Of a stretch of 64,000 nucleotides of DNA, positions 2,188-63,910 are shown one piece after another. The position numbers and the translations under genes are program-made. The stretch spans positions 38,254,001 through 38,318,000 of the forward strand of contig CM114271.1 in the NCBI GenBank assembly GCA_050084515.1. The letters run 5' to 3'. This stretch comes from Blasia pusilla. Its lineage: Eukaryota. Every line of letters starts with the position of its first letter. Positions within the stretch are counted from its first letter, which is position 1. The notes under the pieces were generated by a model. It made no database searches, was not told the origin of the DNA, and worked only from the letters and a program-made list of their open reading frames with translations.

Positions 2188-2702
2188 TGTCACGTCTTTT
2201 AGGATAGATCGGTGAGATCTAATAGAGCGCCTTCGTGAGTAGTGGAGGACACGCTCAGTAGATCGCGGATGACCTGTTGAGGCCCCGGGAAACCTGAGAG
2301 AGCACGTTTCCCCTTCGTTTCGGCTCATTTGGAGCCATATTGAGGAACTTACTATTCTAGGTAATTACCATTTTCGATATATGATGGACTTTCTATTTTT
2401 GGTAAGTGGCCCTTGACCTCCTACATCAAGTCAAGAGCCAAGGAGGTGACTTGGGAGAATAGGTTACCATGGAGAGAGCTTGGGAGAGGGGAGGGGTATA
2501 CCTCAAGGAGAGAGAGAGCTTGAGAGCTCATTCTCTCTTTGTTGAACCTCTTGGCATGAGGCGGCGGAGCTATGGTCCCTTGCCTTGTGAGTGTAATCCG
2601 AGCCTCTCATTAGGAGAGTTGGTTTGGTTTGACATGAGAGAGAGTGCACACCTTGGAGAGTTATGGTGTGAGATGGTGTAGAGAGAGATTGGATCTTACT
2701 TT
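2188..2702 (+). repeat. Terminal repeat A1 of element 1 (about 515 bp)
   Basis: Closely similar to 10101-10249 (inverted) plus 10438-10802, and to 52607-53120 and 63288-63800. Confidence 0.93.
2496..2542 (+). promoter_or_regulatory. Putative TATA-like box (2496) and transcript 5' end / self-primer (2527-2542)
   Basis: TATA lies about 30 nt upstream of CTCATTCTCTCTTTGT, which is the exact reverse complement of 2703-2718. The start site is inferred. Confidence 0.6.
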
Positions 2703-2718
2703 ACAAAGAGAGAATGAG
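2703..2718 (+). promoter_or_regulatory. Self-priming-type primer binding site
   Basis: ACAAAGAGAGAATGAG directly after A1 is 16/16 complementary to 2527-2542. No TGG-starting tRNA PBS is present. Confidence 0.75.
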
Positions 2719-4250
2719 AGTAGCTCTAGAGGTTTTACGCGGAGTGGCGCGAGGTTCCGAGGGTCTCCACGTGAGGGACCACCTCGACCTCCTTCTGTGT
2801 CATCGTCAGATGAGGGGGAGGGTGTAGAGGAGTTTGTGAGCACATCGCCACACATTGTGAGTGGTCCTACTAGTTGGGCGTACGAGATGGACGACCGGGG
2901 TAGAGGACCGCGTAGGTTTTCAGTGCGAGGGGCACGATTGAGTTGCACAATTTTATAGCAGAGTTTAGGAGTTGGTGCGACTCCCAGCGGGCCAGGAACT
3001 CTAGAGAGTTCAACCCGTTTATAGCATGGAACGGTATGTTCCAGCATTTAGAGGGAGCGCCCATGGACGATTACCATGAGTTCTCTCAGAGATATGCATG
3101 TGAGATCGAGGCGTGGAGGCTCTACTATGACCCACATTATGTGTCATGGACGGAGCCGTTCCCAGATGAGGAGGAGGAGTCAGGAGAGGCTACAACCTCT
3201 TCCACTAGTGACGTTTTAGGAGGGGTGACTCGACGGGAGCGATTGCACCGTCTAGTCGGGTTCGCCCCGAGTTCAACCCTCGTGGTTGAGTTCTTTCTTT
3301 GAGTTGAGGGCGAGCTACCAGGGGGTACGGACGGAGAAGTTGCGGAGCATCCACGACTTCCAGAGGCGCCCGGGTGAGATTTTGCGTGAGGCTTACACTC
3401 GCTTGCGCCGGTTGATCAACGTCAGTCAGGGGGTGACAGAGGCTCGGGCTATCCAGTCATGGTACGCGATGCTGGACCGGACCCTACGGACACGGGTGTG
3501 GGAGGGGTGCTTCTTATGAACACCTCCCCTACGTTGAGAGATGTTTTTAGGACCGCCGAGAACATTGAGCGCAACATGGCGGAGGAGAGCGTAGCCACCA
3601 TGGGTTCTGGGCGAGAGCACTCACGATTGTCTGCACCACCTGTGCAGCAACGTGGACTCCGAGATAGGTCGAATGTGGCACCACGAACATAGGGAGGATA
3701 CCAGGAGGCCGTGCCACACAGACCTGCGCCTTCATATGCGGCTCAACAGCAGCCGCCTACTATTACTTGTTGGTCATGTGGTGGAGCCCATCATCAGCGC
3801 GATTGCACTCGTCGAGGGTCATGGACGTGTGCCTCAAAGATGAAGGAGGAGATGGTCCGCACAGGAGGTTATCGGTGTGACTATTGTCGAGGTATGGTCA
3901 TACACGCGCCAGGTGTTTGATTTACATCCTCGAGTTACGCCCGGACCGAGGGCGAGAGGGCACCAGAGCGAGTAGCGGTCGGGTGGGCCTAGAGATCGTG
4001 CACCAGGTGGTCCCGTTGGGGACGAGGAGTGGGGTTTCGGCGGGGTAGTGGAGAGCTGCCCGTGGAGGAGGTAGAGTACCACCACCTAGACGCGCCGAGG
4101 GAGACGCGGGACGTGAGCGGGATGGTCGGTCGCTTTCGATATCTGGCCGGTGCAGGAGGAGATTGCCGCTATGGCATTGAGGTTACCCGATGCCGGATCC
4201 GTGGCATCGACATCATATGGAGCAGCCAGAGATCTGGAGGATCCTTGATG
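2719..4250 (+). pseudogene. gag: gag-like region of element 1 (N-terminally deleted, frameshifted)
   Basis: Retrotransposon-gag-like FQRRPGEILREAYTRLRRL. Zinc knuckle CWSCGGAHHQRDC, and a second knuckle that is frameshifted here but reads C-N-Y-C-x-R-Y-G-H-T-R-A-R-C in element 2. Confidence 0.75.
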
Positions 4251-4799
4251 GATGTGCGGGGTTGCCCAAATGGAGGCCGCCGCAGTTGTGACGCGTGGAG
4301 CAGCCATAGAGTTGGATCCACAACGAGGGGAAGCCAAAAGACAGACTAGGCTTCCTCAGTCTTTCACGTTGTCCGAATCGATGAGGACCCCATCGATGGG
4401 TCCTCATCAAAGTTCGTGGAGAGTTGGTAATGTTGTTGGTATGCATGCACGGAGGGCGATGGGAGAAGCGAGTGCGACAACTCCTATTGTTGATGCTCAA
4501 GAGGGGCATGTGTCGAGCACGTTGTTGGGGGCGGCCACTGTTGTGTACCGCACTCCTTTATTTTTTGCTTCCAATGTTATGACGTTGGGGGGTACGCCCG
4601 CCGAGGCTTTTCGGCCGGCCGCTTCACTATGTGAGCGCAGAGTTGGAGTTCCTGCATCACGTTCAGAGGTGATTGTAGAGGAGGTGATGGACCTGCCCTT
4701 GGAGCGGATGCTCGGGCCGTCCACGTCAGATTCATGGCAGGCTACGGCTGCTAGGATGGCGGAGATGCCCGCTAGACCCGCGATAGAGCGTGCCATGGC

Positions 4800-5220
4800 T
4801 TCTCCTGGTGTTGTGTTGCTGGATAACCGAGGAGAGATCTTCCAGTTGGTCAGTCATGGAGGTAGAGCTTTTAGTCCGCAGCGTGTCTTGTTGGATTCAG
4901 GAGCGCAACCCTTGATGTTGGGGAAAGTGTCATTCAGAGGATTGGGCTTGACGAGAGCCGATGTGGAGCGTTGTCCATTCCGGATACAGACATCTTTGGG
5001 TGGAGCGAGTACCACACAGTATATCATCCGCCAGGAGGTCGTGGTGAGGATTTGCCCGGGACATCCTACAGATGAGTGCGTGGTACGCGCCAAGGCGATA
5101 GTGACTGATGCAGAGTCCTACGACGTCTTGGTTGGTAGAGCAGTGTTATACCCGATAGGGGTTTTCCCTGGATTATTGGGAGGAGTCAGCGTCCTCCAGA
5201 CCATGATGGCAGTCATGTGA
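4800..5220 (+). pseudogene. Retropepsin-like aspartic protease, element 1
   Basis: RVLLDSGAQ active-site motif (DSG 4894-4902) and downstream YDVLVG motif. Confidence 0.85.
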
Positions 5221-5608
5221 TGGGCGCCTTAGCTCATTACCCATTCGATTCACAGGTGCAGTGATCGAGCAACGGCCAAGAGAAATGGCGACCTTAGCAG
5301 CATTTAGCAGTGCCATCACTTGGCCTAGTGATTTGATTGAGGGACATGTCCATGCAGAGGATACTCCCGTTCCTGACATTTCTATGGAGAGGAGTGTTAT
5401 GGTAGCTGCATCATTCTATGGAGGAGAGGTGACGCTGTGGGGCTCGACTGAGGAGCTTCAACGAATGGCAGATGAGCACGTGCAGACCGCATGGAGCGAG
5501 GCGTTTGCACCAGAGCGTGACGGGTCTGAGGAACCCGAGGTAGCAAGGAGTGCTACGATGACACCCTTGGATACCACACCCATTGTGTGGTGTACCCCGG
5601 AGGAGGGT

Positions 5609-6520
5609 ATTCGAGTGTTAGATCTCTTTGGAGGGATTAGCACCGGGTTAGCTACTGTTTTGCAGGCAGGAGTGCGATTACAATAGTACCTGTATGTGGA
5701 GAGTGATGATGTTGCAAGGCGCGTCTCACTACGACATGTGGCGCAATTACGCCTACGTTTTCCCGACTTATTATGCATCCCAGCGATCTGGGTACCGAGT
5801 TCCCTACCGAGGGATATTTCGTTGTTGGGGGCGCATGACTTAGAGCGGGTAGGGACCATTGACTTGGTCATTGCCGGTTGGCCATGTCAGGGCCAATCGA
5901 GTGCTGGACGAGGCAGCGGGTTGGCTGTCACTCGGTCCAGGTTGTTTTGGGAGATGTTGAGGGTCTTACGGCGAGCAGAGCACAGATCTTGTTCTCGGCC
6001 TACCTTCTGGAGAATGTGCCGATCTTAGGAGACTCCAGGTCACGGGTGGTGACGAGTGCTCATCAGGTGTGTGCCTGGATTGGCCCAGCAGTGTTCTTGG
6101 ATGCGGCGAGTGTAGGTTCTAGAACCCATCGCCCGCGTCTATGATGGACCAACTTGGTACCCCATGCGGTGTTATGGAGGGCGTATGCGAGAGTGGAGTG
6201 CCCCTCCCATTTTTTAGTGGATTCCATTTTGGATCCATGTCATTGATCACAAGCAGTGAGGCACGATGATCGACCACCGTTGACTGTGGTCAACAGGGTA
6301 GGCAAGCCGCGGGCAGCCTTGCCCACGTTTGTGAGTTTTCCCGCTTCCTATGCATATAAGGAGGCCGGTCCTGGCTTGGTTTGGGATGACCAGGTTTATC
6401 GATTGGTGGAGCCCAACGCCGACGAGAGAGAGCAAGCGATGGGATTTCCCACAGGAGTGATGGCAGTACCATCAGTGTCAGAGGCATCACGACGTCATAT
6501 CTTGGGTCAGGCGATGGACC
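5609..6520 (+). pseudogene. C5 cytosine DNA methyltransferase domain (DNMT3-like) inside pol, element 1
   Basis: Motif I IRVLDLFGGISTG (5609), IV DLVIAGWPCQ (PC 5882-5887), VI YLLENV (6001-6018), VIII HRPRLxWTN, IX EREQAMGFP, X RRHILGQAMD. Interrupted by stops (5684, 6142, 6244) and frameshifts. Confidence 0.92.
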
Positions 6521-6886
6521 TGAACTGCTTGACATGGATCCTAAGCTTGGGAGTGGCTGATCAGCGTCGTATGAGATCGCAACAGATCACAGCTGTTGAG
6601 TTGGTGAGCCCCATGCCTATCGAGATGGTGGAGGCAGTGGCTAGGGGCGAGACCCGAGGAGATCTACGCACCAGGGGAGATCGGGAGAGACACCCTTGGA
6701 CTTCTTGGGATGTTTTGCAGGTACGCAAGGAGATGATAGCCACAAAGATCGGCGTGGTTTGCAACCACGTGGAGGAGATCGAGTTTGCGGTTGGCTGCAG
6801 GAGAGCGGCCGAGTGTTGTTGTTCAAGACGGGGTTGCACCATAGCAACCACCGATACCCACGCCGGAGAGTCCTACCGTAGTCACG

Positions 6887-8270
6887 ATGGAGACTTGGGA
6901 GCCAGATATGGGCCCTAAGTTGACAGGAGGAGAGCGGCGCCGAATACATCAGTTCCTCAAGAGTTATAGGAGCTGCTTTGCGTTTAGCATGGAGGATTTG
7001 GGTACGCTGAAGGGACGAGGGATCCGCATTGAGTTGTCGAGTGATATGCAGATCTTCCGACAACCCTAGGTGTCTGATGATATGGAGAGGGCTCGATTGA
7101 GTAGGAGCCAGGACTTGGTCGGAGCAGGACTAGTGGAGATGTCGCATGGGGAGTATGCATCTGCCACTATCATGCCCGCCAAGAAGGATATGCATGGCAA
7201 CTGGATGGATAGGCGGATGTGTGGGGATTACCGACCTATCAATCGGCAGACGAAGTCCAATAGGTATGCCATGCCCACCCCTGAGGAGATCTTTGATGCG
7301 ATTGGTCACGCAAAGGTCTTCAGTTCATTGGATTTGCGAGCCGGATACCATCAGCTGCCTATCAGATTGGAGGACAGGCAGAAGACGGCATTTTGGGGCA
7401 TCGATCCTCACGGGAAGGATTGTTTGTACCAGTGGCGGTTCTTACCATTTGGGTTAAAGAATGCCCCGGCTGAGTTTCAAAGGGTCATGGATAGGATCTT
7501 GGCTGGTCTGGATTTTGCTAGGTGTTATATTGATGACATCGTAGTCTTTAGCGCCACGGTTGAGGAGCATGAGCAACATCTAGAGGAGGTGTTCCGACGA
7601 TTGTAATTACATGGGCTGAAGCTACATCCAGGCAAGTGCAAGTTCTTCTACGACCAGATTGAGTACTTAGGTCATACAATATACCCAGGGGGCCTTGGTG
7701 TTCAGCAAACGAAGGTAGAGGCTATCTCACGCATTCCACGCCCTACAGATGTGAGTCGTGTTCGTATATTCATGGGATTGGCAAACTTCTATCGGCGATA
7801 CGTCAAGAGATTCAGTTCAATTGCGAAGCCGCTGACCTTGCTGACCAAGGTGGATCACGAGTGGCACTGGGGGGATGAGCAGAAGCAAGCATTTCAGTTG
7901 CTCAAGGACAGGTTGACGTCCGCACCCATCTTGAGGAGACCGATCGGGGCGTCCTTTCGATTGCACACATATTGGAGCATGTTGGGGCTTGGAGCGGTGC
8001 TCACCAAAGATGATGATGAGGGTAGAGAGTTCAGAGTGGCTTACGCTAGCCGCTCGAACAACGCGCAGAGGCGGTAATCTGGCTCGTATGAGGGTGAGTG
8101 CTTGGTCGCGTGTGGGGGTCGCGCATTTCAAGTGTTACTTATTCGGCAACCCTTTTACCATCATCACTGATAATCAACCACTGAAGTGGTTGATGGAGTC
8201 CGACAAGCTTACAGGGAAGCTTGCGAGATGGGCTCTGTTGTTGCAGGAATATGATGGGATGCTCAACCAG
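6887..8270 (+). pseudogene. pol: Reverse transcriptase and RNase H, element 1
   Basis: RMCGDYRPIN, FSSLDLRAGYHQ, LPFGLKNAP, YIDD (7526-7537). RNase H motifs LGAVL, VAYASR, FTIITDNQPL, LARWALLLQEY. Confidence 0.97.
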
Positions 8271-8669
8271 GATGTAGATGGGTTGAGTCGTAACCCATTC
8301 CCGAGTCAGCAAGATGCGACTGGAGCTCGATGGCATGGAGAGAGTGATGAGGAGTCGGTGCGAGGATGGCACACGTCAGCCTATTTAGGCATGTTGGCTA
8401 TGGAGAGCCAGAGTGTGGAGACTTCGATGGCGAGGTCTAGTGGAGAGTCCTTGGATCCCGAGACCAGTGAGGACATGGCAAGTGGCCGAGATATTCATGA
8501 TGATGGAGTAGTCTTGGAGTACCTTCGTACTGGCAGCGTTGCGAGCACGATGGATGCTAGAGAGCGGGATCGGATCCTACAGCGGGCCAAACGGTTCCGT
8601 TGGGAGGGGACACATGTTTTGAGGGTTTGGGAGGATGGTAGAGTACTCGTAGTGCCGCATCCTTTGTAG

Positions 8670-9931
8670 AGAGCACGACTAGTGCAGCATGCCCACGAGG
8701 AGTTGGGTCACTTTGGCGTGAAGCGGACGTACAGCTTGCTCCAGATTCAGTATTGGTGGCGAGGCATGCAGACTGACGTTCAGCAGCTTTGTTGCCAGGT
8801 GCATGGTGTGTGATCGGGTCCGAGCATCATTCAATGCTCCGACTCCTGATTGCATCCGTTACCGATCATGGGCTTAGGGTATAGATGGAGTTTGGATTTT
8901 GCAGGACCTTTGCCCTTGACGGAGCGTCACAGTCGTTATGTGTTGGTGATGGTCGAGCACTTCTCGAAGTGGATCGAGTTGGTTGCATTGCCTGACAAAG
9001 CGAGTGAAGGAGTAGCTTATGCCTTCCTTGACAGAGTGGTGAGTCATTATGGCGCACCGGCTGAGGTGTTGACAGACCAGGAGTACCGAAGTTTCGCGGT
9101 GAGTTCCAGGCCTTGTGTGATCAGGCGCTGATCGACCACCGCACGACTTCGCAAGATCATCCCGGGGCGGATGGATTAGCGGAGAGAGTTGTGCAAACGG
9201 TGAAGAGGGGTTTACGCAAGTATGGCTTGCAGAGAGGTCACCTAGGAGATTGGGACCTCCAGTTGCCATGGTTGGCGATGGGATCTGATTCAGTGAGCGA
9301 GCATCCTTAGCGTCTTTTTCACCGTACTTGCTACTTTATGGCGAGAGCCAGATTTACTGCGCCATTCGTCGAGATCTTTGGTGATTTGCTGGACCTTGAT
9401 GACCCAAATGTATGGGTGCGAGCATGTTCTCAGAGGGCTGAGTTATTTCGGAGAGTGATGCCCATGGCGTTCAAGAACTTGGCGATTGCACAACATCGGG
9501 ATACGTTGAGGTATGCGACTATTCGGGGTGGTGGTTATCGACCAACTATCCGGAGGTTTCATTTGGGAGATTATGTCTACTTGCAGCAGACGGCACCGAC
9601 GACGTTGGATGTGACTGCAGGGCGCACTATCCTGAGAGTGCGTGACATTTTTCCATCGGGTGTTCTCTTGCTGGAGGGACGCAATGGTATGGTATGGAAG
9701 GACCATGTGCGTAATTGTGCACCATGTCACCTTCCTAACATTGATGGTACAGTAGATCCGAGCTTAGCAATAGTTCCTGCAGGCTTGCGTTGTATGTTGT
9801 GTGGTTCTGCCCGTGGTGTGGCCACGATGCTAGTCTGTGATGGGTGTTCGAGAGGATGGCATATGGCATGTTTGACGCCACCTCTCACTAGGGTTCCTAA
9901 GGGAGGATGGATGTGTCCCAGATGTACATAG
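8670..9931 (+). pseudogene. DDE integrase with C-terminal PHD finger, element 1
   Basis: HHCC (HEELGHFG...CMVC) and core WSLDF / VLTDQ / GLAER. C4HC3 PHD finger CMLC...VCDGC..GWH..CL.PPL..VP.G.W.CPRC at 9791-9925, stop at 9931. Confidence 0.95.
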
Positions 9932-10100
9932 AGTAGGTAGTTCTACATTCCGACTTGTGTCTGTGACATGGATGAGAAGAAGGCGACTAACATGGGGCCA
10001 CATGAGCACCCGGCCTTCTTGCTCTTAGCGTCCGAGAGATGTATGTCATGGTAGGTAGGGATAGATGTAAGTTCCTTAATATTGAGGAACTTACTATTTC

Positions 10101-10422
10101 GGCTCCAAATGAGCCGAAACGAAGGGGAAACGTGCTTTCTCAGGTTTCCCGGGGCCTCAACAGGTCATCCGCGACCTACTGAGCGTGTCCTCCACTACTC
10201 ACGAAGGCGCTCTATTAGATCTCACCGATCTATCCTAAAAGACGTGACAGCTGTCGTGCACATACATATCGCTACACAACATACATCGCTGTCACCGAAC
10301 ACACACACAAACACGCATGATCCCATGCTAACTCATGGCATCCAAAAAACGGGAAAAGAAGTACCAAAATATCTCCAATCGCCCCCCTAGTTGGTGGTTA
10401 GGTCCCTCTAACTCCAGATAGC
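10101..10422 (-). other. Inverted segment in the 3' end of element 1 (PPT + B1 + first 149 bp of A2), flanked by 26-bp palindromes
   Basis: Its reverse complement is colinear with about 63116-63436 of element 2. Palindrome TAAGTTCCTCAATATTGAGGAACTTA at 10427-10452 and a 1-mismatch copy at 10068-10093. Confidence 0.9.
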
Positions 10423-10437
10423 AATATAAGTTCCTCA

Positions 10438-10931
10438 ATATTGAGGAACTTACTATTTTAGGTAAGTACCATTTTCAGTATATGATCGACTTTCTATTTT
10501 TGGTAAGTGGCCCTTGACCTCCTACATCAGGTCAAGAGCCAAGGAGGTGACTTGGGAGAATAGGTTACCATGGAGAGAGCTTGGGAGAGGGGAGGGGTAT
10601 ACCTCAAGGAGAGAGAGCTTGAGAGCTCATTCTCTCTTTGTTGAACCTCTTGGCATGAGGCGGCGGAGCTATGGTCCCTTGCCTTGTGAGTTGTAACCCG
10701 AGCCTCTCATTAGGAGAGTGGGTTTGGTTTGACATGAGAGAGAGTGCACACCTTGGAGAGTTATGGTGTGAGATGGTGTAGAGAGAGATTGGATCTTACT
10801 TTGATTGGAGATATTTTGGTACTTCTTGTCTCGTTGTTTGGATGCCATGAGTTAGCATGGGATCATGCGTGTTTGTGTGTGTGTTTGGTGACAGCGATGT
10901 ATGTTGTGTAGCGATGTGTATACGCATGACA
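10438..10931 (+). repeat. Remainder of A2 (10438-10802) and terminal B2 (10803-10931) of element 1
   Basis: A2 part matches about 2337-2702. B2 GATTGGAGATA...GCATGACA matches inverted B1 (10252-10380). Confidence 0.9.
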
Positions 10932-13870
10932 CATGTCTCACGAGCTCATCTGCACTCCATGCAACAACACTCGTCCCCAACAACGATAAAGAAAACTCTA
11001 CACCATGGGAAGAGACACCCACCTTGGCATGTGTCTCTGTGGGACTATCCGCTATGGGAATGTCCTCCACATGTATGCTCCTCTCCCTGAACCCTCTTGA
11101 GCAACTAACACCACCTGTGAATGCTGCCACCGTGGTCACCGTATCCTCACGTGGTTGACCACCACTGCCCCCTACAAACTGCACCGGTAGATCCCTCACC
11201 CGTCCATCACCTAATCGCCACCCTGACCGATAAGAAATATTCTCCTCCCAAAAATCCAGAATGAACCAAGGGGATACAACACCGTACTCCTTACCAACAC
11301 ATCATATGACTCTGTCAATGTTGTAATCGCCCGATTGCGCACCATGCCACCGTTGCACTATCCGTCTCATGCTCTAGCTGGAGTCTAACCACCAACTCCT
11401 GTCGAGTCATGTAGTGTGTGGGTGATATGCCCCCAATAGAAGTATGTATCTGAAAGGGAAAATGCTCTATGTTGCCTTTCCGTAACCCCAACGCCAACAC
11501 GCCGCCTTCCCTAACATCAAGGGCTGCGCTCTTGAATCAAGTAGGACGCAGTGCGGGTGGTACACCGTACCGGTGGGACTAACCAAGCGAAACAATCCAG
11601 CTTGGTAATCCAAAAACACCACACCTGGTGTGATCATGGCTTGCTTTAGCAATAGCATATCTACCAACTTTTCCGCCACAGCATGCCATGACTGAGTGGG
11701 GGACATCCCGAGCACCTGCTCCGAGGGTAGGTCACCACTTCCTCAACTACCTCTTAGCAAGAGGCAATCACCTCTCCACGCTCACACAACATGGCGGCTA
11801 GTCAAAAAACCTCCTCTAGTTTGACTCCCAACGTCACCAACTCCATGACAGAAAAAAACAGAGTATGGCTCATCCTAGTGGCCACCTCCAACAACGTGGT
11901 AGACATTGGCTCTACCTGAGCCGGCATAGAAGTCGTCTCTCCAACTCCTCGTGGCGTTGATGCACTTGCCTCATCCATGGGCACTACTGGTTTCCGAGGT
12001 ACCATCGATGGTGTATGCAATACCTCCGACAAGGTGAACGACTAGGGAATCCTAGCCTGCCGCCCATCGTCCCCTCTTGTGGATCAATCTCAACCCCACT
12101 TGTCGATGGCTCGGTTACTCTCGCAGCATCTCGAGTCACCACCGGAGCAACCTCAACCTGAGCTGCACTACACAGAAATCCCATACCAGAAAAATCCTCA
12201 ACAGTATTGTGGTAAGATGTGGAGGCTGGCACCACACTAGCTACTCTCAGCTTCGTGCTTGACCTTAGTTGTATCATCGTCATGACAGCAATCCTCTGCT
12301 CCAACTGATCGATGCGAGTAAGGAGCGCTCCATCGGGTGCACGTCCTCCATCTCCTATGACTGGTGATGGAACTCTACCACCAAGATCATCCACTACTCG
12401 ATCTCCACCAACTCTCTCGCCCCCAAGTCCTCTACCTACCTCTAGACGTACATCGCGGCAAAGCATCTATCCCTAGTGTGACCATATCGATGACATTGAT
12501 CACATTGCATCTATGGTAGGGCCATCCTAGATGGCTCCTGAGCAATCGCAGGCGGCCTCAACCCTCTACCATGTTGTGGGTAGTCCCTCTGCCTATGTGG
12601 CCCACCACACGTCCAACAAGCCCACCCTCATCCCTATTGGGTAGCATATGTCGGTACGGGCCGGTGCCTCATCGGCTCACGATAACCCCCTTGCTCTTTG
12701 GGCCCACCGGCCCGCTCCCATGGTCCTCCGATGGAGGACTTCATGGAGTTCCCTCGATACCTCACGCCACTCCATGTCACTCCACTGCCACTGCTCGTAC
12801 TACCCCGTTCTTATGAACCGTGGAAGAACGCCGTGGTGACAACCCTGTCTCACCCCGCTCAAGCGCTCAACTCACCAAGAGTCTCCCACACTCCTCACTA
12901 GCTCACCTACGCTAATGGTAGCCCCATGATGACATACTCGGCCTCACGCACACTCACCACTCGGGCTCACCTTGAGCCTCTCGACTAACTCACCTAAGTC
13001 ACAAACATACTCTCGGATCATACACACGACCCCTACTCGGCAACCGCCGTATAGCCATAAACATGCTACACATACATGGAAACTACACTCGTCACCATCG
13101 CTACACCCATCTAGCACCAACAACTACTCAATACCCATCACTCTCAATGACACAAGATAAGTGCAGGAAAAGGGACTCGAATGGGTAACCTGAACACGAC
13201 TCCCAATCTACTATACGTCAACACTAACTCCTCCATGTCATGCAGCAACCTTCGCGGCACACACTCTCCTCGACCAATATGTCAAACCTCTTCTCAACAG
13301 ATGCGGACGACCCATGTGTCTCTAGCACTACTCGCGCGAACCATCTCTAACTAGGCAACAAATGCCGATCGGCAAAACCCACTCTCTAAATTCCCACTAC
13401 TCTGAGAAAATCGCAACTCCCCCCAACCATGTAGTTCTCCAATGAACGAATACTCTGTTTCGCCCTACCATGTACAATGTCTAACTGCATCTGCTCCCAC
13501 CATATAATCCCGTACTAACTGAGTAGTTGCTGAATCACCACGTCTGGACCCAACCATGTCACCTGACCGCAACTGCGTATTGCCTCTATCCCTTCTGCCA
13601 CCTCCCGGACCGCGGATCTTCTTCCTCCCAAACACCATGGCACCTGGTTGCACTCTTCCCTAACACCGTTCTCTTCCAATCTTCACCTGGCCACTTCTAG
13701 CTCTTGTGGCACGCCGCCCTATGTGGCCAGCCCCACAACCTCGGAGCTGTGTTGCATGCTCTCCCCACTACTCAGCCTTTTCTTCCTCTTCTACCCCTTA
13801 GGACCGCAGCTCTTGCGTGAGCGCGCAAACCTATGCGCCTTGCCCCTAGCCCATGCGCGGCTCCCTGTGC
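10932..13870 (-). mobile_element. Element 3: older, diverged relative of the same gypsy family (leader, partial gag, protease); 5' boundary uncertain
   Basis: VLLDSRAQPLMLGK protease, AQVEVAPVVTRDAA and LPVQFVG...IHVEDIP are homologous to element 1. GTGTTCAGGTTACCCATTC (about 13179-13197, minus) is shared with the element 2 leader (about 54316-54334). Confidence 0.82.
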
Positions 13871-52606: not shown

Positions 52607-53120
52607 TGTCACGACTAGTAGGATAGATTGGTGGGATCTAGCAGAGCGTCTGCACGAATAGTGGAGGACAGGCCCAAGATGTCGAGGACGACCTGTTGAG
52701 GCCAGGGGAAACCTGAGAGAGCAAGTTTCCCCTTCGTTTCGGCTCATTTGGAGCCATATAGAGAAACTTACTATTTCGGATAAGTTTCCATGTTGGGGAT
52801 AGTTGACTTTCCACTTTGGGAAGTGGCACTTGACCCGCTATAGTAGATCAAGAGCCAAGGAGGTGACCTGCGAGCATAGGTTACCATTGAGAGGGCTTGG
52901 GAGAGGGAAGGGGGAAAACCTCCAAGAGAGAGAGCTTGAGAGCCCATTCTCTCTTTGTTGAACCTCTTAGCATAAGGCGGCGGAGCTATGGTCCCTTGCC
53001 TTATGAGTGTAACCCAAGCCTCTCATTAGGAGAGTGGGTTTGGTTTGACATGAGAGAGAGTGCACACCTTTGAGAGCTATGGTGTGAGATGGTGTAGAGA
53101 GAGATTGGATCTTTCTTTTA
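52607..53120 (+). repeat. Terminal repeat A1 of element 2
   Basis: Matches A2 at 63288-63800. Followed by ACAATGAGAGATTGAG, a degenerate self-priming PBS. Confidence 0.93.
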
Positions 53121-54640
53121 CAATGAGAGATTGAGAGATCTTCATGGGGGAGCTCCTAGGTCACTCGCTGTTTTTGCAGGTTGGGGACCGTGTACTCCGT
53201 TCAGCGGCTCATGGGAGTGCTCACCGGAGCAAGGGCTACTTTGATTGTTCTTTGCATTTGCCGATTTTTCGTGTGGAAGAGTGGCGCGCGGAAGCGCTGC
53301 CCAATTTCAGATAGGGATTGATTATGGGGGCGGGTCGCCCCCTGCTTCCGCTCTTGGGAGCACCATGTAGCTTTCTGATTTGTATTTTTACAGGTTTTAC
53401 ATTTTTTTGGAGAAATCAGCGCGGAAGCGCTGCCAAATTTTGTGTAGGAGAAAGAGACATTTGGCTTTACAACAATCCCTGTCAGTTTTTACTTGAATGT
53501 TCAATTCTAAATATATTTTGACATTGTTGTAGATCGCAAAGTTGTGCATGCTGTGCAACAAACAATGTGCAATTTGGAGTTTTGAGCAAAAAGTTATGGT
53601 CAATCTTGAAAAATTGCCATTACTAGGCGATTTTTAGGGTTAAATTGTTCAAACCCTAAACCAACCGCCACACCGGCAGTGGCTGTCGCCGTCATAGTCA
53701 CCGGTCAATGGTCAACCATCATTGTCAATGGTTCACCATCCATTGTCCACCCTTTGGTTGCCATTGCCGCCATTACGGAATGGAGGGTCTTCCACGACGT
53801 TCGTTGATTCTCTAACTTGCGTCGCCACCACGTACTTTGTTTAGGCCGCCACCGTCATCGCAATTTTGTCATCAACTAGTGATGGAAGATGACCTACGGT
53901 TATGGTGTTTGAGTTTGATTTCATGCTGCTATGTTATGATTGGTAGCCGCTCGATGAAGATCGAGTACCGTGCCGTGACGCCTGTAGCCGCAACGCCGCC
54001 GATTGCTGCGCTGTGCCGCTCGTGGCCCAACCACACTGTCTCGATCGTGGAACCGCTCCTTCACTAAGGAGCAGAGTGTGTGAATTTTTGATTGAGGAGG
54101 GTATGCTGCCGAGTGCCGCTCCCCATTCCCGAGTGCCGTGTTGTTTGTAGCCGTTCCGTGCCCCCAGTGCCGCACAGGACCGCTCGACCTACACCGCACA
54201 TCGAGGAGGTTGAGTAGCGTCAGTACGAGAGGAGTACGACTTGCTAATTGGAGGAGTTCTCTTCACGACCAAGTTGGGGTCGAGATTTGCAGTTGCTGAG
54301 GAGCGACATCGATATGTGTTCAGGTTACCCATTCTGGTCCTTTACACTGCACGTGTGAGGGATTCTGGGATTTGGGTAGTTTATTTGGGGATATTGGGTT
54401 GTGTGGATGTTGAGAGCATCATTCATGTATGTGGTTTAGGGGACATAGACCTGTGTGAGATGTCCGAAGTTGAGGGTAGGTTATCGATGAGATGATAGCC
54501 TCGTCGATTTGCCGCACCATGCCGCGTGTTGTCGCACGTTACACGTCTCGGGGAGGGAGAGTGTAGATTGAGTGCCGCATGTTTGGGATAAGTGATTGAG
54601 GGATAACTCATGAGGTTGAGAGTGATCGGGTGAGAGGGGC

Positions 54641-57600
54641 ATGAGGGTCATCACGGCGTTCGTTCGGGACTTTGAGAGGCGAGGTGGTGAACCGGAGAGT
54701 AGCTCTAGAGGTTTTACGCGGAGTGGCGCGAGGTTCCAAGGGTCTCCACGTGAGGGACCACCTCGACCTCCTTCTGTGTCATCGTCAGACAAGGGGGAGG
54801 GTGTAGAGGAGTTTGTGAGCACATTACCACACATTGTGAGTGGTCATACCAGTTGGGCATACGAGATGGACGACCGGGGTAGAGGACCGCGTACGTTTTC
54901 AGGTACAGTAGGCACGATTGAGTTGCACAATTTCATAGCATAGTTTAGGAGTTGGTGCGACTCCCAGCGGGCCAAGAACTCTAGAGAGTTCAACCCGTTT
55001 ACAGCATGGAACCGTATGTTCCAGCATTTAGAGGGGGCACCCATGGACGATTACCATGAGTTCTCTCAGAGATATGCACTTGAGATCGAGGCTTGGAGGC
55101 TCTACTATGACCCACATTATGTGTCATGGACGGATCCGTTCCCAGATGAGGAGGAGGAGTCATGAGAGGCTACTTCCTCTTCCACTAGTGACATTTTAGG
55201 AGGGTTCACTCGCACTAGAGCAGTTGCACCGTCTAGTCGGGTTCGTCCTAGATTCAACCCTGTGGTTGAGTTCTTTGCTGAGTTGAGGTCGAGCTATCAG
55301 CGGGTACGGACGGAGAAGTTGCGGAGCATCCACCACTTCCAGAGGTGCCATGGTGAGAGTTTGCGTGAGGCTTACACTCGCTTGCGCCAATTGATCAACG
55401 TCACTCAAGGCGTGAGAGAGGCTCAGGCTATCCAATCATGGTACGCGATGCTGGACCGGACCATACGGACACGAGTGCGGGAGGGGGTGCTTCTTATGAA
55501 CACCTCCCCTACGTTGAGAGATGTTTTTAGGACCGCCGAGAACATTGAGCACAACATGGCGGAGGAGAGCGTAGCCACCATGGGTTCTAGGCGAGAGCAG
55601 CCACGATTGGTTACACCACATGTGCAACAACGTGGACTCCGAGATAGGTCGATTGTGGCACCACGAGCTCAGGGAGGATACCACGAGGCCGTGCCACAGA
55701 GACGTGCGAGCTCACCAGCAACCGCCTACTATTACTTGTTGGTCATGTGATGGAGCCCATCATCAACGCGATTGCACTTATCAGGGTCATGGATGTGTGC
55801 CTTAACATGGAGGACGAGATGGTGCTACGCCAGGAGGTTATCAGTGTAACTATTGTTAGAGGTATGGTCATACACGCGCCAGGTGTTTCAATTTACATCT
55901 TGAGTTACGTCCGGACCGAGGGCCAGAGAGGGCACCAGAGTGAGTAGCCGGTCTAGGTGGGCTAGAGATCGTGTACCAGGTGGTCCCGTAGGGGGACGAG
56001 GAGCTGGAGTTGCTCGACAGGGTGGTGGAGCTGCCCGTGGAGGAGGTAGAATACCACCATCTAGACGCGCCGAGGGAGACGCCGGACGTGAGGCTGGGAT
56101 GGCTGCTCAGATACAACAACTACAGGAGCAGATTACCGCTATGGCATTGAGGTTACCCGATGCCGGATCCATGGCATCGACATCATATGGAGCAGCCAGA
56201 GATATGGAGGATCCTGGTTGGATGTGCGGGCTTGCCCAGATGGAGGCCGCCGCAGTTGTGACGTGTGGAGCAACCGGAGAGTTGGATCCACAACGAGGGG
56301 AAGCCAAAAAATAGACTAGGCTTCCTCAGTCTTTCACATTGTCCGAAGCGATGAGGACCCCATCTGTCACAACCCTCATAACCAAACAACACCAAATAGG
56401 CGCCAAGCGAAACATCAAAACTCAGAGGAACTCACGTTGCGAGGTTTGCGCTTTGGAGAGGCGTTTGGATAAGTCTCTTGGAAAAGTCTAAGAGACAAAA
56501 CGCGGAATAGAGTTGTGTGTTTCATACGTTAGTGGTCGCGACCAAGAAATCTAGAACAAACGCGAGCCAAGACTTGAGATGAGTTGAGTCTTGGGAGGTT
56601 GGTTGCCAAAGAGGTGAGAACCAGTTTGGAACACGACTAGCGTTTGGGAGAATCTGATTGTGTGTAGGACCATAACGTTGAGCTCCAAGATGCGTTTGGG
56701 ACAAATAAGGGTGCGTTGGAAAGCTGATCTTAAGACACTTCTAATGCACTAAAGATATCAGAAAACACATAAGTACAGGCTAAATATTGGCCAAAAACGA
56801 TTGAGACATCAACTGGATTGAGGGCCAATTGGAGAGGCCCGTGTGTCTTTCCCTAAATGTAGGGGGCCCCCGGAGATCCCTAGAAGTACTAGTAAGGTAG
56901 GAGTCTCTCCGAGATGTCTCGGGAAATGAATCCCCACTTTGGGCGCCAAACGGCATTTCAGAGGCACGGGATGGAACGGGAGTTTGGCGTGGGAACTCAA
57001 AACCCAAACCTGATCCAAGGGAGTGGACTTTGTATGCCACATTTGGATCCCAACCCGAGATTCACTTTGTGTGAGTCTTGATGAGGAACTCATTGGATGT
57101 CCATCGGACAGTTGGAACCGCTAGGCGCGAAACGCCGTTTCAGGTTCCTGAACCGACTAGAAAGTCTGCCCCAAGTCTTTCGAGATTTTCCCGTGTTGTA
57201 AACCGCGAAACTAGGAAGGTTCAGCTTGATGAGAGTCCGAGACGAGAACTCGGAAAGTAATCCCGCTGATTGATCCAAGACCCGACTAACCAAAGTGCGT
57301 GTTTGGATGCAGATCAGCGTTGAGAGCGTGACCTACTGAACGCACGCTTCCGCAACAAACAAGATTAACGTTCAAGGAGAGTAGGCGTACGACACCATCG
57401 ATGGGTCCTCATCAAAGTTCCTAGAGAGTTGGTGATGTTGTTGGTGTGCAAGCATGAAGGGCGATGGGAGAAGAGAGTGCGACGACTCCTATTGTTGATG
57501 CTCAGGAGAGGCATGTGTCGAGCACGTTGTTGGGGGCGGCCACCACTGTGTATTGCACTTATTTCTTTTCTGCTTCCGATGTTATGACATTGGGGGGTAC

Positions 57601-58260
57601 GCCCGCCAAGGCTTTTCGGCTGACCGCTTCACTATATGAGCGCGGAGTTGGAGTTCTTGCATCACGTTTAGAGGTGATTGCAGAGGAGGTGATGGTCCTA
57701 CCCTTGGAGCGGATGCTCGGACCGTCCACGTCAGATTCATAGTAGGCTGCGGCTGCTAGGATGGTGGAGATGCCCGCTAGACCCGCGATAGAGCGTGCCA
57801 TGGCTTCTCTTGGTGCTGTGTTGCTGGATAACTGAGGAGAGGTCTTCCAGTTGGTGAGTCCCGGAGGTAGAGCTTTTAGTCCGCAGCGCATCTTGTTGGA
57901 TTCAATAGCGCAACCCTTGATGTTGGGGAAAGCGTCATTAAGAGGATTGGGCTTGACGAGAGCCAATGTGGAGTGTTGTCCATTCCGAATACAGACATTC
58001 TTGGATGGAGCGAGTACCACACAGTATATCACCTGACAAGAGGTCGTGGTGAGGATTCGCCCAAGACATCCTACAGATGAGTCTGTGGTGCGAGCCAAGG
58101 CAATAGTGATTGATGTAGAGTCCAACGACGTCTTGGTTGGTGGAGCAATATTATACCTAATGGGGTTTTCCTTGGATTACTGGGAGGAGTCAACGTCCTA
58201 CAGACCAAGATGGTAGTCAAGTGATGGGTGCCTTAGCTCATTACCCGTTCGATTCACAGG
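54641..58260 (+). pseudogene. gag and protease of element 2, interrupted by a solo LTR
   Basis: Colinear with element 1 2719-5220. Knuckles CWSCDGAHHQRDC and CNYC*RYGHTRARC (55845-55886); protease RILLDSIAQ. Confidence 0.85.
56365..57394. mobile_element. 1030-bp solo LTR (or non-coding LTR-type insertion) nested in element 2
   Basis: TGTCAC...CGACA ends, perfect 5-bp TSD CCATC (56360-56364 / 57395-57399), and absent at the homologous site of element 1 (about 4390). Confidence 0.9.
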
Positions 58261-58612
58261 TGCAGTGATTGAGCGACGGCCAGGAGAGGTGGCAAGCTTA
58301 ACAACATTTAGCAGTGTCATCACTTGGCCTAGTGATTTGATTGAGGGACATGTCCATGCAGAGGATACTCCCGTTCCTGACATTTCTATGGATAGGAGTG
58401 TTATGGTAGCCGCATCATTCCGTGGAGGAGAGGTGCCGTTGTGGGGCTCGATTGAGGAGCTTCGACGATTGGCAGATGAGCACGTGCATACCACGTGGAG
58501 CGAGGCGTTTGCATCGGAGCGTGACCGGTCTGAGGAACCCGAGGTAGTAGGGAGTGCTATGATGACACCCTTGGATACCACATCCATTGTGTGGTGTGTC
58601 TCGGAGGAGGGT

Positions 58613-59530
58613 ATTTGAGTGTTAGATCTCTTTGGAGGGATTAGCACCGGGTTAGCTGCTGTTTTGCAGACATGAGTGCGAGTGCAGCAGTACTTGTATG
58701 TGGAGAGTGATGATGTTGGGAAGCGCGTCTCACTACTACATATGGCATAGTTATGCCTACATTTTCCCGACTTATTTTCTGCGTCCGCGGTACAAGGGTA
58801 TTAGAGTTCCCTACCGAGGGATATTTCGTTGCTGGGGACGCAGGACTTAGAGCGGGTAGGGACCATTGATTTGGTTATTGCCGATTGGCCATGTCAGGGC
58901 CAATCAAGTGCTGGACGAGGCAGTGGGTTGGCTGACACTCGGTCCAGGTTGTTTTGGGAGACGTTGAGGATCTTACGGCAGTTGCAAGAGCACCAATCTC
59001 ATTCTCCAGCCTACATTCTGGAGAATGTGCCGATCTTAGGAGACTCCAGGTCACGGATGGTGACGAGTGCTCATCAGGTGCGTGCCTGGATTGGCCCAGC
59101 TGTGTCCTTGGATGTGGCAAGTGTAGGTTCTAGAGCCCATCGCCCGCGTATATGGTGGACCAACTTGGTGCCGCATGCGGTGTTACGGAGGGTGTATGCG
59201 AGAGTGGAGCACCCCTCCCATTTGTTAGTGGATTCCATTCTAGACCCAGGTCGTTGATCACAGGAAATGAGGGACGATGATCGACCATCGTTGACTATGG
59301 TCAACATGGTAGGCAGGCCGTGGGCAGCCTTGCCCACGTTTGTGAGTTTTCCCACTTCCTATGCATACAAGGAGGCCGGTCCTTGCTTGGTTTGGGATGA
59401 CCACGTTCAGTGGTTGGTGGAGCCCAACGCCGAAGAGAGAGAGCGAGCGATGGGATTTCCCACAGGAGTGACGGAAATATTGTCAGTTTCAAAGGCATCA
59501 CGACGCCATGTCTTGGGTCAGGGATGGACC
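58613..59530 (+). pseudogene. DNMT3-like methyltransferase domain, element 2
   Basis: VLDLFGGISTG, IDLVIADWPCQGQS, YILENV, AHRPRIWWTNL, ERERAMGFP, RRHVLGQ. Confidence 0.92.
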
Positions 59531-59901
59531 TGAACTGCTTGACATGGATTCTCAGCTTGGAAGTGGCTGAGCAGCGCCATATGAGATCGCGACAGATCAC
59601 AGCGGTTGCGTTGGTGAGACCTATGCCCACCGAGACGGTGGAGGCAGTGGCTAGGGGCGAGACCCTAGGAGATCTACACACCAGGGGAGATCAGGAGAGA
59701 CACCCTTGGACTTCTTGAGATGTTTTGCAGGTACGCCAGGAGATGATAGCCACAGCATCGAGCGTGGTTCCAGGCACTGCACGTGGAGGAGATCAGAGTT
59801 TGCAATTGGTTGTAGGAGAGCGGCCGAGTGTTGTTGTTCGAGACGGGGTTGCACCATAGCAACCACCGATATCCGCGCCGGAGAGTCCTACCGTAGTCAC
59901 G

Positions 59902-62900: not shown

Positions 62901-62973
62901 GCATATGGCATGTCTGACGCCACCTCACACTAGGGTTCCTCGAGGACGATGGATGTATCCCAGATATACATAG
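59902..62973 (+). pseudogene. pol: RT, RNase H, integrase and PHD finger of element 2
   Basis: RMCGDYRPIN; YIDG (mutated YIDD); FQLHTDWS..YSYEGECL; WSLDF/VLTDQ/GLAER; PHD at 62833-62970 with last Cys pair mutated to Tyr. Many stops. Confidence 0.95.
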
Positions 62974-63149
62974 AGGAGATACTAGGTAGGTTTTGATTCC
63001 GAATTTTTCTATGACATGGATGACAGGAAGCGACTAACGATGGGGCCACATGAGCACCCGGCCTTTTTGCTCTTAGTGTCCTAGAGATGTATGTCGTGGT
63101 AGGTAGGGATAGATGGCTATCTGGAGTTAGAGGGACCTAACCACCAACT

Positions 63150-63910
63150 AGGAGGGCGATTGGAGATATTTTGATACTTCTCCCTGTGTGTATGGATGCC
63201 ATGAGTTAGCATGGGATCGTCTGTGTTTGTGTGTGTGTTCGATGACAGTGATGTATGTTATATAGCGATGTGTATGCGCACAAAAATTGTCATGATTGTT
63301 AGGATAGATTGGTGGGATCTAGCAGAGTGTCTACACGAGTAGTGGAGGACATGCCCAAGAGGTCGACGATGACTTGTTGAGGCCCCGAGAAACCTGAGAG
63401 AGCAGGTTTCCCCTTCGTTTTGGCTCATTTGGAGCCATATAGAGAAACTTACTATTTCGGATAAGTTTCCATATTGGGGATAGTTGACTTTCTACTTTTG
63501 GAAGTGGCACTTGACCCGCTACAGTAGGTCAAGAGCCAAGGAGGTGACCTGCGAGCATAGGTTACCGTTGAGAGGGCTTGGGAGAGGGAAGGGGGTATAC
63601 CTCCAAGAGAGAGAGCTTGAGAGCTCATTCTCTCTTTGTTGAACCTCTCGGCATAAGGCGGCGGAGTTATGGTCCCTTGCCTTGTGAGTGTAACCCAAGC
63701 CTCTCAATAGGAGAGTGGGTTTGGTTTGACATGAGAGAGAGTGCACACCTTTGAGAGCTATGGTGTGAGATGGTATAGAGAGAAATTGGATCTTATTTTA
63801 TTGGAGATATTTTGGTACTTCTCGCCTCTGTATATGGATGTTATGAGTTAGCATGGGATCGTTTGTGTTTTTGTGTGTGTTCGATGACAACGATGTGTAT
63901 GCGCACAACA
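63150..63910 (+). repeat. 3' end of element 2: PPT-like AGGAGGGC (63150-63157), B1 (63159-63285), 2-nt spacer, A2 (63288-63800), B2 (63800-63910)
   Basis: B1 and B2 both read ATTGGAGATATTTTG.TACTTCTC...GATGTGTATGCGCACAA(C/A)A; A2 matches A1. Confidence 0.93.

Follow-up and report, generated by a model that had tools for sequence, protein, structure and literature searches.

How does a land-plant retrotransposon come to carry a cytosine methyltransferase inside its own polyprotein, and what might it do with it? The question is posed by a 64,000-nucleotide stretch of the Blasia pusilla genome (GenBank assembly GCA_050084515.1, contig CM114271.1, positions 38,254,001 to 38,318,000, forward strand), the whole of which was analysed and is called the window throughout. 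A repeat search with BLASTN finds within these 64 kb two plus-strand copies of one Ty3/gypsy-type element, about 89.5% identical over an internal 5.7 kb, whose polyprotein reads, in order, gag (with a zinc knuckle), aspartic protease, a DNMT3-like C5 DNA methyltransferase (DNMT), reverse transcriptase (RT), RNase H, integrase and a PHD finger. Hosts fight transposons above all by cytosine methylation, so that a transposon with a de novo methyltransferase of its own is a paradox. Both copies are decayed, dead insertions with no function left in the window, which is in itself ordinary, a place of two functionless relics. To judge from their sequences, the Gypsy-DNMT3 family also lives in land plants. 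The window element very probably belongs to a liverwort branch of the kind known from the charophyte alga Klebsormidium nitens, a kinship that follows from the protease–DNMT order, the homologous DNMT and the split direct repeats found in place of plain long terminal repeats (LTRs).

The methyltransferase domain and its place in Pol

A first-pass annotation, made from the letters alone, had placed the DNMT between protease and RT in both the upstream copy (copy 1) and the downstream copy (copy 2), and both tblastn and an alignment of the copies confirm this. In copy 2 the protease and the DNMT occupy a single frame from 57473 to 59521, and a single tblastn segment (residues 14-685 of the Marchantia protein P0007) spans 57473-59524 in frame 2. 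The later frame changes are, in the alignment of the copies, indels private to one of them: one base at 5995 in copy 1, one at 59522 in copy 2, and, again in copy 1, four plus one at 6765 and 6780. The common ancestor therefore had protease, DNMT and RT in one frame, so that the frame check which the annotation had proposed, here judged from the two natural copies, comes out in its favor. Relatives elsewhere fit this: the metagenome protein P0045 (2188 residues), a single open reading frame (ORF), runs from zf-CCHC through protease, DNA_methylase, RVT_1 and RNase H to integrase, its Asp_protease_2 match being weak (22 bits, under the cut-off of 24.3), and in the metagenome locus L001 protease–DNMT and RT–RNase H–integrase–PHD share a frame with one stop between them. 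As a separate observation, L001 (5083-5085) and L002 (2081-2083), which are otherwise open, carry this one in-frame stop in the same place between DNMT and RT; this may reflect the inheritance of a mutation, or else a signal for read-through from gag–protease–DNMT into RT–RNase H–integrase. The idea that the DNMT was part of a host gene disrupted by the element was considered and rejected, given the same Pol position in both copies and in relatives from four genera.

Motifs I, IV, VI, VIII, IX and X had been reported at matching positions in the two copies, and all six were located (copy 1 and copy 2, respectively):

5618-5641 and 58622-58645, plus strand: motif I, LDLFGGIS
5879-5893 and 58886-58900, plus strand: motif IV, WPCQG
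6007-6021 and 59018-59032, plus strand: motif VI, LENVP
6127-6138 and 59138-59149, plus strand: motif VIII, HRPR
6436-6450 and 59447-59461, plus strand: motif IX, AMGFP
6490-6531 and 59501-59541, plus strand: motif X, RRH[IV]LG followed by MDLNCL

Two details of the first description need amending. The strings quoted in it are all present, yet they mix the two copies, AHRPRIWWTNL and ERAMGFP coming from copy 2, and IRVLDLFGGI and RRHILGQ from copy 1, whose own versions of the former pair read THRPRL*WTNL and EREQAMGFP. The domain lies where it was said to lie, and its true ends are slightly beyond the 6520 and 59530 given, at about 6567 and 59577. Run on the natural copies, the suggested PF00145 hidden Markov model scores above its curated cut-off of 22 bits in both: 34.9 bits (E 1.5e-8) at 5687-6025 in copy 1 and 43.9 bits (E 2.7e-11) at 58805-59254 in copy 2. 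The pieces 5207-5686, 5863-6141, 6247-6915 and 59258-59530, scanned singly, match no Pfam family, and only pieces with motifs IV to VI match alone. The sequence resemblance to a DNMT is far beyond chance.

Neither copy's DNMT is open. Copy 1 has three in-frame stops (5684, 6142 and 6244), a one-base deletion near 5995 that shifts the frame, and three-base deletions near 5794 and 5976; copy 2 has five in-frame stops (58616, 58673, 58748, 58802 and 59255), a frameshifting one-base deletion near 59522, and a change of Gly to Asp before PCQ. For all this wear, the key residues (Cys in PCQ, which is catalytic, Glu in ENV, HRxR in motif VIII and the motif I glycines) each survive in one or both window copies; across an alignment of 40 relatives they vary little or not at all. 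The manner of the wear is also telling: 417 of the 582 substitutions between the copies are transitions, 123 are at CpG versus TpG/CpA, and most stops lie one C-to-T or G-to-A change from the codon of the other copy, as expected from the decay of methylated DNA.

Around the domain, the parts of the two copies are laid out as follows, with the evidence for each in brackets:

2188..10943, plus strand: copy 1, from A1 repeat to B2 repeat (self and cross BLASTN, alignment)
2188..2702, plus strand: copy 1 A1, the 5' terminal repeat, beginning TGTCACG (97-98.7% identity to 10438-10802 and 10101-10249, the latter inverted)
2925..3806, plus strand: copy 1 gag-like region with CX2CX3HX4C knuckle, CWSCGG at 3768-3785 (tblastn, Marchantia P0010 residues 17-329, 32% identity)
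4477..5160, plus strand: copy 1 aspartic protease region, LDSGAQ at 4891-4908 (tblastn, Marchantia P0007 residues 17-240, 45% identity)
5609..6567, plus strand: copy 1 DNMT3-like domain, broken (PF00145; alignment to the intact P0003)
7214..7603, plus strand: copy 1 RT, YIDD at 7526-7537 (RVT_1, E 8.5e-23)
7868..8252, plus strand: copy 1 RNase H in two frame pieces (RT_RNaseH_2, E 1.1e-13; RT_RNaseH, E 3.4e-12)
8880..9083, plus strand: copy 1 integrase core (rve, E 1.4e-9; tblastn with the P0045 integrase region)
9791..9925, plus strand: copy 1 PHD finger, C-terminal in the integrase (PF00628, E 2.7e-11)
10101..10428, minus strand: copy 1 inversion found in this copy alone, taking in B1 and the first part of A2 (aligned in reverse orientation with copy 2 63110-63436)
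10438..10943, plus strand: copy 1 remainder of A2 (10438-10802), followed by B2 (10803 to about 10943)
52607..63910, plus strand: copy 2, whole span (BLASTN, alignment)
52607..53113, plus strand: copy 2 A1 repeat (93.5% identity over 507 bases to 63288-63794)
57473..58612, plus strand: copy 2 protease region and linker, in the frame of the DNMT (tblastn, P0007)
58613..59577, plus strand: copy 2 DNMT3-like domain, broken (PF00145; alignment to P0003)
59911..61273, plus strand: copy 2 RT (59911-60861) and RNase H (60905-61273) (tblastn, P0007; RT_RNaseH, E 2.2e-33)
61921..62955, plus strand: copy 2 integrase core (61921-62187) and PHD finger (62833-62955) (rve, E 6.2e-9; PHD, E 2.4e-7)
63159..63910, plus strand: copy 2 3' repeats, B1 from 63159 to about 63287, A2 63288-63794, B2 63800 to about 63910

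The placement of protease and gag derives from tblastn with the Marchantia proteins and from the architecture of the relatives; the Pfam match of copy 2 gag is weak (E 0.0083, below cut-off). Copy 2 holds two segments absent from copy 1, of 1.56 kb (53138-54694) and 1.03 kb (56365-57390). The first was considered as an insertion into copy 2 and rejected: RNA reads that continue past 2720 of copy 1 resemble its start, and a deletion of this leader segment from copy 1 is therefore more likely. The second, which starts TGTCAC as the A repeat does, may be a nested insertion.

The ends of the element are not plain LTRs. In copy 2 they are split direct repeats in the order A1 ... B1-A2-B2, with A1 and A2 93.5% identical and B1 (63159-63254) and B2 (63800-63896) 89.7% identical; copy 1 has the same parts, with about 330 bases (10101-10428) inverted. 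In RNA reads and DNA contigs from this organism, 10067 is joined to 10422 in the opposite orientation; other copies therefore have the uninverted form, and the inversion is private to copy 1. The metagenome locus L005 has the same A1 ... B1-A2-B2 arrangement around a protease–DNMT–RT–RNase H–integrase–PHD element. It corresponds to the split direct repeats defined for PAT and Ngaro elements in the passages of PMC4157794 that deal with them, and a DIRS repeat structure combined with Gypsy domains is given for the K. nitens element in the legend to Fig. 4c of PMC5890265. With the ends set at TGT...ACA, a choice of B2 end on which the result hinges, the copies are probably flanked by 4-base target duplications, ACTC/ACTC for copy 2 and CGTG/CATG, with one transition, for copy 1, a length that fits a DDE integrase. 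By eye, no tRNA primer binding site was recognised after A1.

Class and kin of the methyltransferase

To which class of methyltransferase does the domain belong? It had been called DNMT3-like, unpermuted and distinct from DRM, and motif order, profile scores and fold search all bear this out. The window motifs run from I to X, with no circular permutation of the DRM kind, in which VI-X precede I-V. Compared with solved chains, the copy 2 fragment matches DNMT3A best (E 1.6e-5), followed by HaeIII and DNMT3B at about 5e-4. A profile of 40 natural relatives (alignment A2), headed by P0003, an open relative of 368 residues that is 60-66% identical to the window, separates the classes more widely: DNMT3A scores 97 bits (E 1e-26), DNMT3C 92 and DNMT3B 91, against 55 bits for 4onj (which we take to be a tobacco DRM, its listing title being just 'DNA methyltransferase'), 44 for DRM2, 39 for HhaI, 34 for HaeIII and about 25 for DNMT2. 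No DNMT1 or chromomethylase chain is among the 57 sequences that this profile matches at E <= 0.01. The DRM chains match profile positions 89-220 only, through their C-terminal halves, as is expected for a permuted enzyme. An AlphaFold model of P0003 (predicted local distance difference test 92.2, predicted template modelling score 0.90) finds in Foldseek DNMT3A, 3B and 3C alone among the 31 matches listed, at 20-24% identity and with target TM-scores of up to 0.84 for catalytic-domain chains and 0.41-0.56 for longer chains. A protein atlas look-up with P0003 returned generic PF00145 clusters, one streptophyte and two phage, and is uninformative on class. Pfam found neither PWWP nor ADD in the polyprotein pieces, the sole reader being the PHD finger after the integrase; companion domains are lacking in many DNMT3s, according to the relevant part of a 2025 survey.

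The kin of this domain are numerous. A word-based protein search with a 150-residue fragment of copy 2 yields 25 proteins (E down to 1.2e-57), 13 from Marchantia polymorpha, two from Calypogeia fissa, one from Closterium and nine without a species name. Identity to the fragment is 48-68%, save for one nameless match (46%) and Closterium (40%), and the closest are Marchantia and Calypogeia proteins with 59-67% over the 150 residues. An exhaustive search with the copy 2 fragment returns 1552 cluster representatives at E <= 1e-3, 276 of them at <= 1e-10, and at least 425 metagenome stretches belong to the family; look-ups of the clusters yield Closterium species, Scenedesmus ('pol') and the K. 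nitens protein GAQ93235.1. The matches of the word-based and exhaustive searches are element-borne or nameless domains, with no canonical DNMT3, DRM or DNMT1 sequence among them. In Marchantia, MARPO_0091s0058 has RVT_1 and RNase H behind the DNMT. GAQ93235.1 is assumed here to be among the copies that the 2018 study dealt with. Its zf-CCHC lies at 297-313, followed by a protease match at 598-691 (Asp_protease_2, 22.8 bits, just below the cut-off of 24.3) and by the DNMT at 830-1148; aligned with P0003 it shows 37% identity over 322 residues (E 4e-59).

Annotation of 211 proteins and of the open frames of 80 metagenome loci with segments of P0045 resolves two architectures. One has the order protease–DNMT–RT–RNase H–integrase and occurs in liverworts, Closterium, K. 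nitens, P0045, L001 and L005. The other has the order RT–RNase H–DNMT–integrase–PHD and occurs in Scenedesmus and many metagenome records, among them the proteins P0078/P0180 (Scenedesmus 'pol'), P0055, P0089 and P0137 and the loci L036, L047, L050, L052, L053, L059-L065, L073 and L076, with many frames open for 2000-3600 residues. A PHD finger after the integrase is found in both (also in P0078, P0055, L001, L005 and others). The trees, which hold element-borne domains and, as root, six nameless weaker PF00145 matches, group the sequences along the same line. With FastTree (112 rows) the window pieces fall in a 19-row clade with liverwort sequences (support 100), the second architecture is one 58-row clade (support 99), and the first forms basal groups. 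With IQ-TREE in 'quick' mode, on 54 hand-chosen rows of the 112, the two architectures are sisters, with Shimodaira–Hasegawa-like approximate likelihood ratio test (SH-aLRT) values of 85 for the protease–DNMT–RT group and 91 for the other, and the window lies inside a liverwort clade of nine rows (100). The K. nitens protein groups with the window in both trees. The DNMT seems to have moved within Pol once.

Selection can be read in relatives that are still intact. The ratio of nonsynonymous to synonymous substitution rates (dN/dS) in their DNMT is 0.14 between L001 and L002, both open (dS 0.25), 0.09 between L003 and L005, and 0.04 between L041 and L043; within a decayed metagenome family it reaches 0.74, tending higher in pairs with more stops. 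Purifying selection on the DNMT of intact relatives is thereby shown.

Transcripts and neighboring DNA

Three RNA-seq runs of the same organism, from one study, cover 30 of 30 bins of copy 1 at a likeness of at least 90%, with a strong strand bias that flips exactly in the inverted segment; for stranded libraries of the usual type, this means sense transcription. Each run contributes 3733-3969 reads, 3088-3248 of them at 90-95% likeness and only 22-27 at >=99%, so it is other members of the family that are transcribed. Most reads across several of the copy 1 indels lack the indel; in run X21, for instance, 39 of 53 reads are without the extra base at 5157.

A land-plant OEP61 gene had been noted in the window, and its exon indeed matches liverwort proteins alone: the three protein matches of 42416-42943 (minus strand) are from Marchantia (62%), Calypogeia (59%) and Riccia (56%), the last of them named outer envelope protein 61. 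The host is accordingly most likely a liverwort.

The surroundings hold further remains. At 11035-12621 (minus strand) lies a third, more diverged related fragment that runs from gag to protease, with 28-47% identity to Marchantia P0010/P0007; it faces the 3' end of copy 1 head-on and retains no DNMT part. Beside copy 2, 51926-52351 and 50561-51022 (minus strand) carry a fragment resembling PIF1 helicase (PF05970, E 3.5e-23) and a weak match to a helicase C-terminal domain, which could be a Helitron-type or PIF1 remnant. Between the copies, the long open frames at 14617-16101 and 24484-27179 (minus strand) are transposase-like, with one weak DUF4371 match (E 1.4e-5, under cut-off) and no Pfam family in their other frames; they are probably other decayed mobile elements. 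In base composition, the two copies (2188-10943 and 52607-63910) have a G+C content of 0.51-0.53 and a CpG observed/expected ratio of 0.74-0.78, while the DNA from 14000 to 52000 has 0.41 and 0.51, respectively, and is thus more depleted in CpG than the element copies.

A possible role, its rivals and known systems

What would an intact member do with such an enzyme? In intact members the DNMT would be made as part of Gag-Pol and is likely to be catalytically active on DNA. It may then act on the element's own reverse-transcribed DNA or on the fresh insertion, although such self-methylation is a possible role that is rather less likely than not; methylation of the element's own complementary DNA (cDNA) before or at integration is an idea already present in the discussion of PMC5890265, and so is the first-pass annotation's version of it, in which the protease would release the enzyme to methylate the cDNA or a circle. 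The PHD finger offers a second clue. A 50-residue stretch at 9779-9928 matches solved chains at E 2e-16 to 1e-9, best first CHD4, KMT2C/D, PHF12, the PHD1 of KDM5B and KDM5A, DPF3, KAT6A, ATXR5, PHF21A, AIRE and UHRF1. Most of these proteins read the unmodified tail of histone H3 (K4me0 or R2), and from this company we infer that the finger would tether the integrase, and with it insertion, to chromatin with an unmodified H3 tail, unmethylated at K4. The arrangement would have a parallel in the chromoviral chromodomain and, curiously, in the ADD domain that host DNMT3 carries. Joined together, these strands would describe Gypsy-DNMT3 as an old and widespread lineage of green plants that persists and is still transcribed in land plants, Marchantia and other liverworts included. 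Its intact members would combine a DNMT3-type writer of 5-methylcytosine with a PHD reader of the H3K4me0 type on the integrase; they would methylate the DNA that they newly make, perhaps also host DNA next to it, and choose silent chromatin for insertion. The DNMT would have entered the family in a single acquisition and shifted its place in Pol a single time, leaving its site between protease and RT for one between RNase H and integrase. As a whole this joint picture is doubtful, if possible.

Several observations weigh against the main reading, that of a liverwort branch of the Gypsy-DNMT3 kind with a DNMT3-like enzyme at work in its intact members. Compared by the Nei–Gojobori method, the DNMT of the two window copies has a dN/dS of 0.67 over 292 codons, which is not significantly below 1 (Fisher p 0.078), so that the dN/dS check advised in the first-pass annotation shows constraint in the intact relatives (0.04-0.14) and no significant constraint in the window itself, where RT gives 0.31 (p 3e-6), RNase H 0.38, integrase 0.47, the protease region 0.77 and the linker before the DNMT 1.23. 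A1 and A2 differ by 1.3-3% in copy 1 and by 6.5% in copy 2, and much of the 10.5% divergence between the copies must therefore have arisen after insertion and without constraint, which makes the test weak in the window. A TGA at 6244-6246 and 59255-59257 is common to both copies, where relatives have Arg or His: the progenitor's DNMT may already have been broken and yet spreading, or one CGA codon may have been hit twice. The window protease ORF matches no Pfam family, and the target duplications depend, as said, on where B2 is taken to end. The placement of DNMT3A/3B/3C as the nearest solved relatives, supported by score ranking and predicted fold, is not that of a tree with reference enzymes. 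Finally, the K. nitens Gypsy DNMT gave no detectable methylation in yeast, an outcome that its authors call inconclusive in the passage reporting it, human DNMT3B having failed too (PMC5890265).

How, then, do other explanations fare? The window's dN/dS and its many stops, one of them shared, are what one would see if the DNMT were a functionless passenger, a piece of host DNMT3 captured by one lineage or a chimaera of assembly or nested insertion. This explanation is nonetheless largely refuted and keeps only a trace of probability: the domain stands in the same place and frame in both copies and in the same place in 13 Marchantia and two Calypogeia records, in Closterium and in K. nitens, its catalytic motifs are near-invariant in the 40 relatives and its intact pairs are constrained, and it is as similar to Marchantia (62% identity in its C-terminal part) as RT is (63-64%). 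The same invariance, with the PCQ Cys, ENV Glu, HRxR and motif I glycines each left in one window copy or both, makes it highly improbable that the domain, like DNMT3L, has lost catalysis and serves Pol as a binding module for DNA or chromatin. An active enzyme might instead work on RNA, either the genomic RNA of the element or its primer tRNA, much as DNMT2 methylates tRNA. For the enzyme borne by a long interspersed nuclear element, RNA methylation is raised by the 2018 authors in the passage concerned, and the negative yeast assay of the K. nitens enzyme on DNA points the same way (PMC5890265); the profile's 97 bits for DNMT3A as against about 25 for DNMT2, the presence of DNMT3 chains only among the fold matches listed, and the CG methylation of DNA by the related DIRS-borne Symbiodinium Dnmt3 reported there (PMC5890265) render an RNA substrate very unlikely.

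A last alternative concerns history rather than function. Retrotransposons move between plants, and a horizontal transfer into liverworts, or an independent capture of a DNMT by liverwort elements, could replace long vertical descent within streptophytes. Two captures from similar host genes are possible, the trees hold element-borne domains and not host DNMT3, and the 2018 paper, where it treats the origin of such elements, stresses recurrent separate captures (PMC5890265). Against such origins speak the zinc knuckle–protease–DNMT order, which liverworts have in common with Closterium and K. nitens, the split direct repeats, an oddity reported for K. nitens as well, and the union of the protease–DNMT–RT elements in one group of the DNMT tree (SH-aLRT 85). 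The DNMT identity to Marchantia and Calypogeia (59-67%) is moreover near that of the OEP61 host exon (56-62%). We regard a separate or horizontal origin as unlikely, and return to the reading of the window element as a liverwort branch of the Klebsormidium kind.

How new is this? The literature agrees with the statement in the first-pass annotation that retrotransposon-borne DNMTs are known in Symbiodinium and Klebsormidium, as the sections of PMC5890265 on both describe. Its further suggestion, an extension to embryophytes, stands insofar as the host is a land plant; the Marchantia and Calypogeia records already hold the same architecture, so that the extension had gone unremarked rather than unseen. 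The parts of a 2026 preprint and a 2025 paper that touch on the subject speak, respectively, in a passing mention of 'streptophytes (Gypsy-DNMT3)' and of retrotransposon-embedded DNMT3 'in streptophytes and dinoflagellates'. We found no literature on such elements in liverworts, Marchantia or land plants, and the supplementary tables of 2018 and 2025 may list Marchantia copies. The searches bring together over 1500 cluster representatives and no fewer than 425 metagenome stretches, the DNMT occupies either of two positions in Pol, a PHD finger is common to both architectures, and split repeats are combined with a DDE integrase; all this suggests a family larger and older than the literature describes. 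The phenomenon has so far been documented in two algal lineages; the liverwort and its Marchantia kin bring it into land plants and to a tractable model with well-studied methylomes. There one can ask whether the element methylates its own cDNA, whether it or the host benefits, and whether enzymes carried by elements contribute to the host methylome.

Set beside known systems, the Blasia element is closest to its fellow liverworts. The Marchantia and Calypogeia proteins (among them MARPO_0091s0058, Mp_8g17980 and Mp_4g09160) have the same protease–DNMT–RT order, differing in that they come from other species and are annotated as hypothetical proteins or by domain only. KnitGypsy-Dnmt3, as portrayed in the K. 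nitens passages and the Fig. 4c legend of PMC5890265, likewise has an unpermuted Dnmt3-type DNMT inside a Gypsy Pol ORF and DIRS-type split repeats with Gypsy domains; by contrast, the Blasia host is a liverwort and not a charophyte alga, identity is about 37%, the liverwort sequences form a separate, well-supported clade, and the copies are dead. A PHD finger after the integrase is a feature of the Blasia element, and the K. nitens record GAQ93235.1 is partial. Green-algal and metagenome Gypsy elements of the second architecture, such as Scenedesmus 'pol' (KAF8056149.1), share a homologous DNMT (about 40% identity) and the same PHD finger behind the integrase, but their DNMT stands behind RNase H and before the integrase, not ahead of RT, and they form the sister group in the DNMT tree. 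SymbioDIRS-Dnmt3 of Symbiodinium is also a retrotransposon-borne Dnmt3-type enzyme, and the sole case with de novo CG methylation shown; it belongs, however, to a tyrosine-recombinase (DIRS) element of a dinoflagellate host and is described, where the paper discusses it, as an independent capture (PMC5890265). From PAT and Ngaro, whose repeat order it shares, the Blasia element differs by a DDE integrase and a probable 4-base target duplication in place of a tyrosine recombinase. With host DNMT3 (mammalian DNMT3A/3B/3C and bryophyte DNMT3) the domain has in common the motif order, the HRxRxxW of motif VIII and the ERxxGFP of motif IX, whereas it is part of a retrotransposon polyprotein and not a free gene, and its motifs VIII and IX lie farther apart (the whole query has 368 residues, the chains about 285). 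Chromoviruses, finally, also fuse a chromatin reader to their integrase, but theirs is a chromodomain and not a PHD finger (comparison cited in the pertinent part of PMC6673714).

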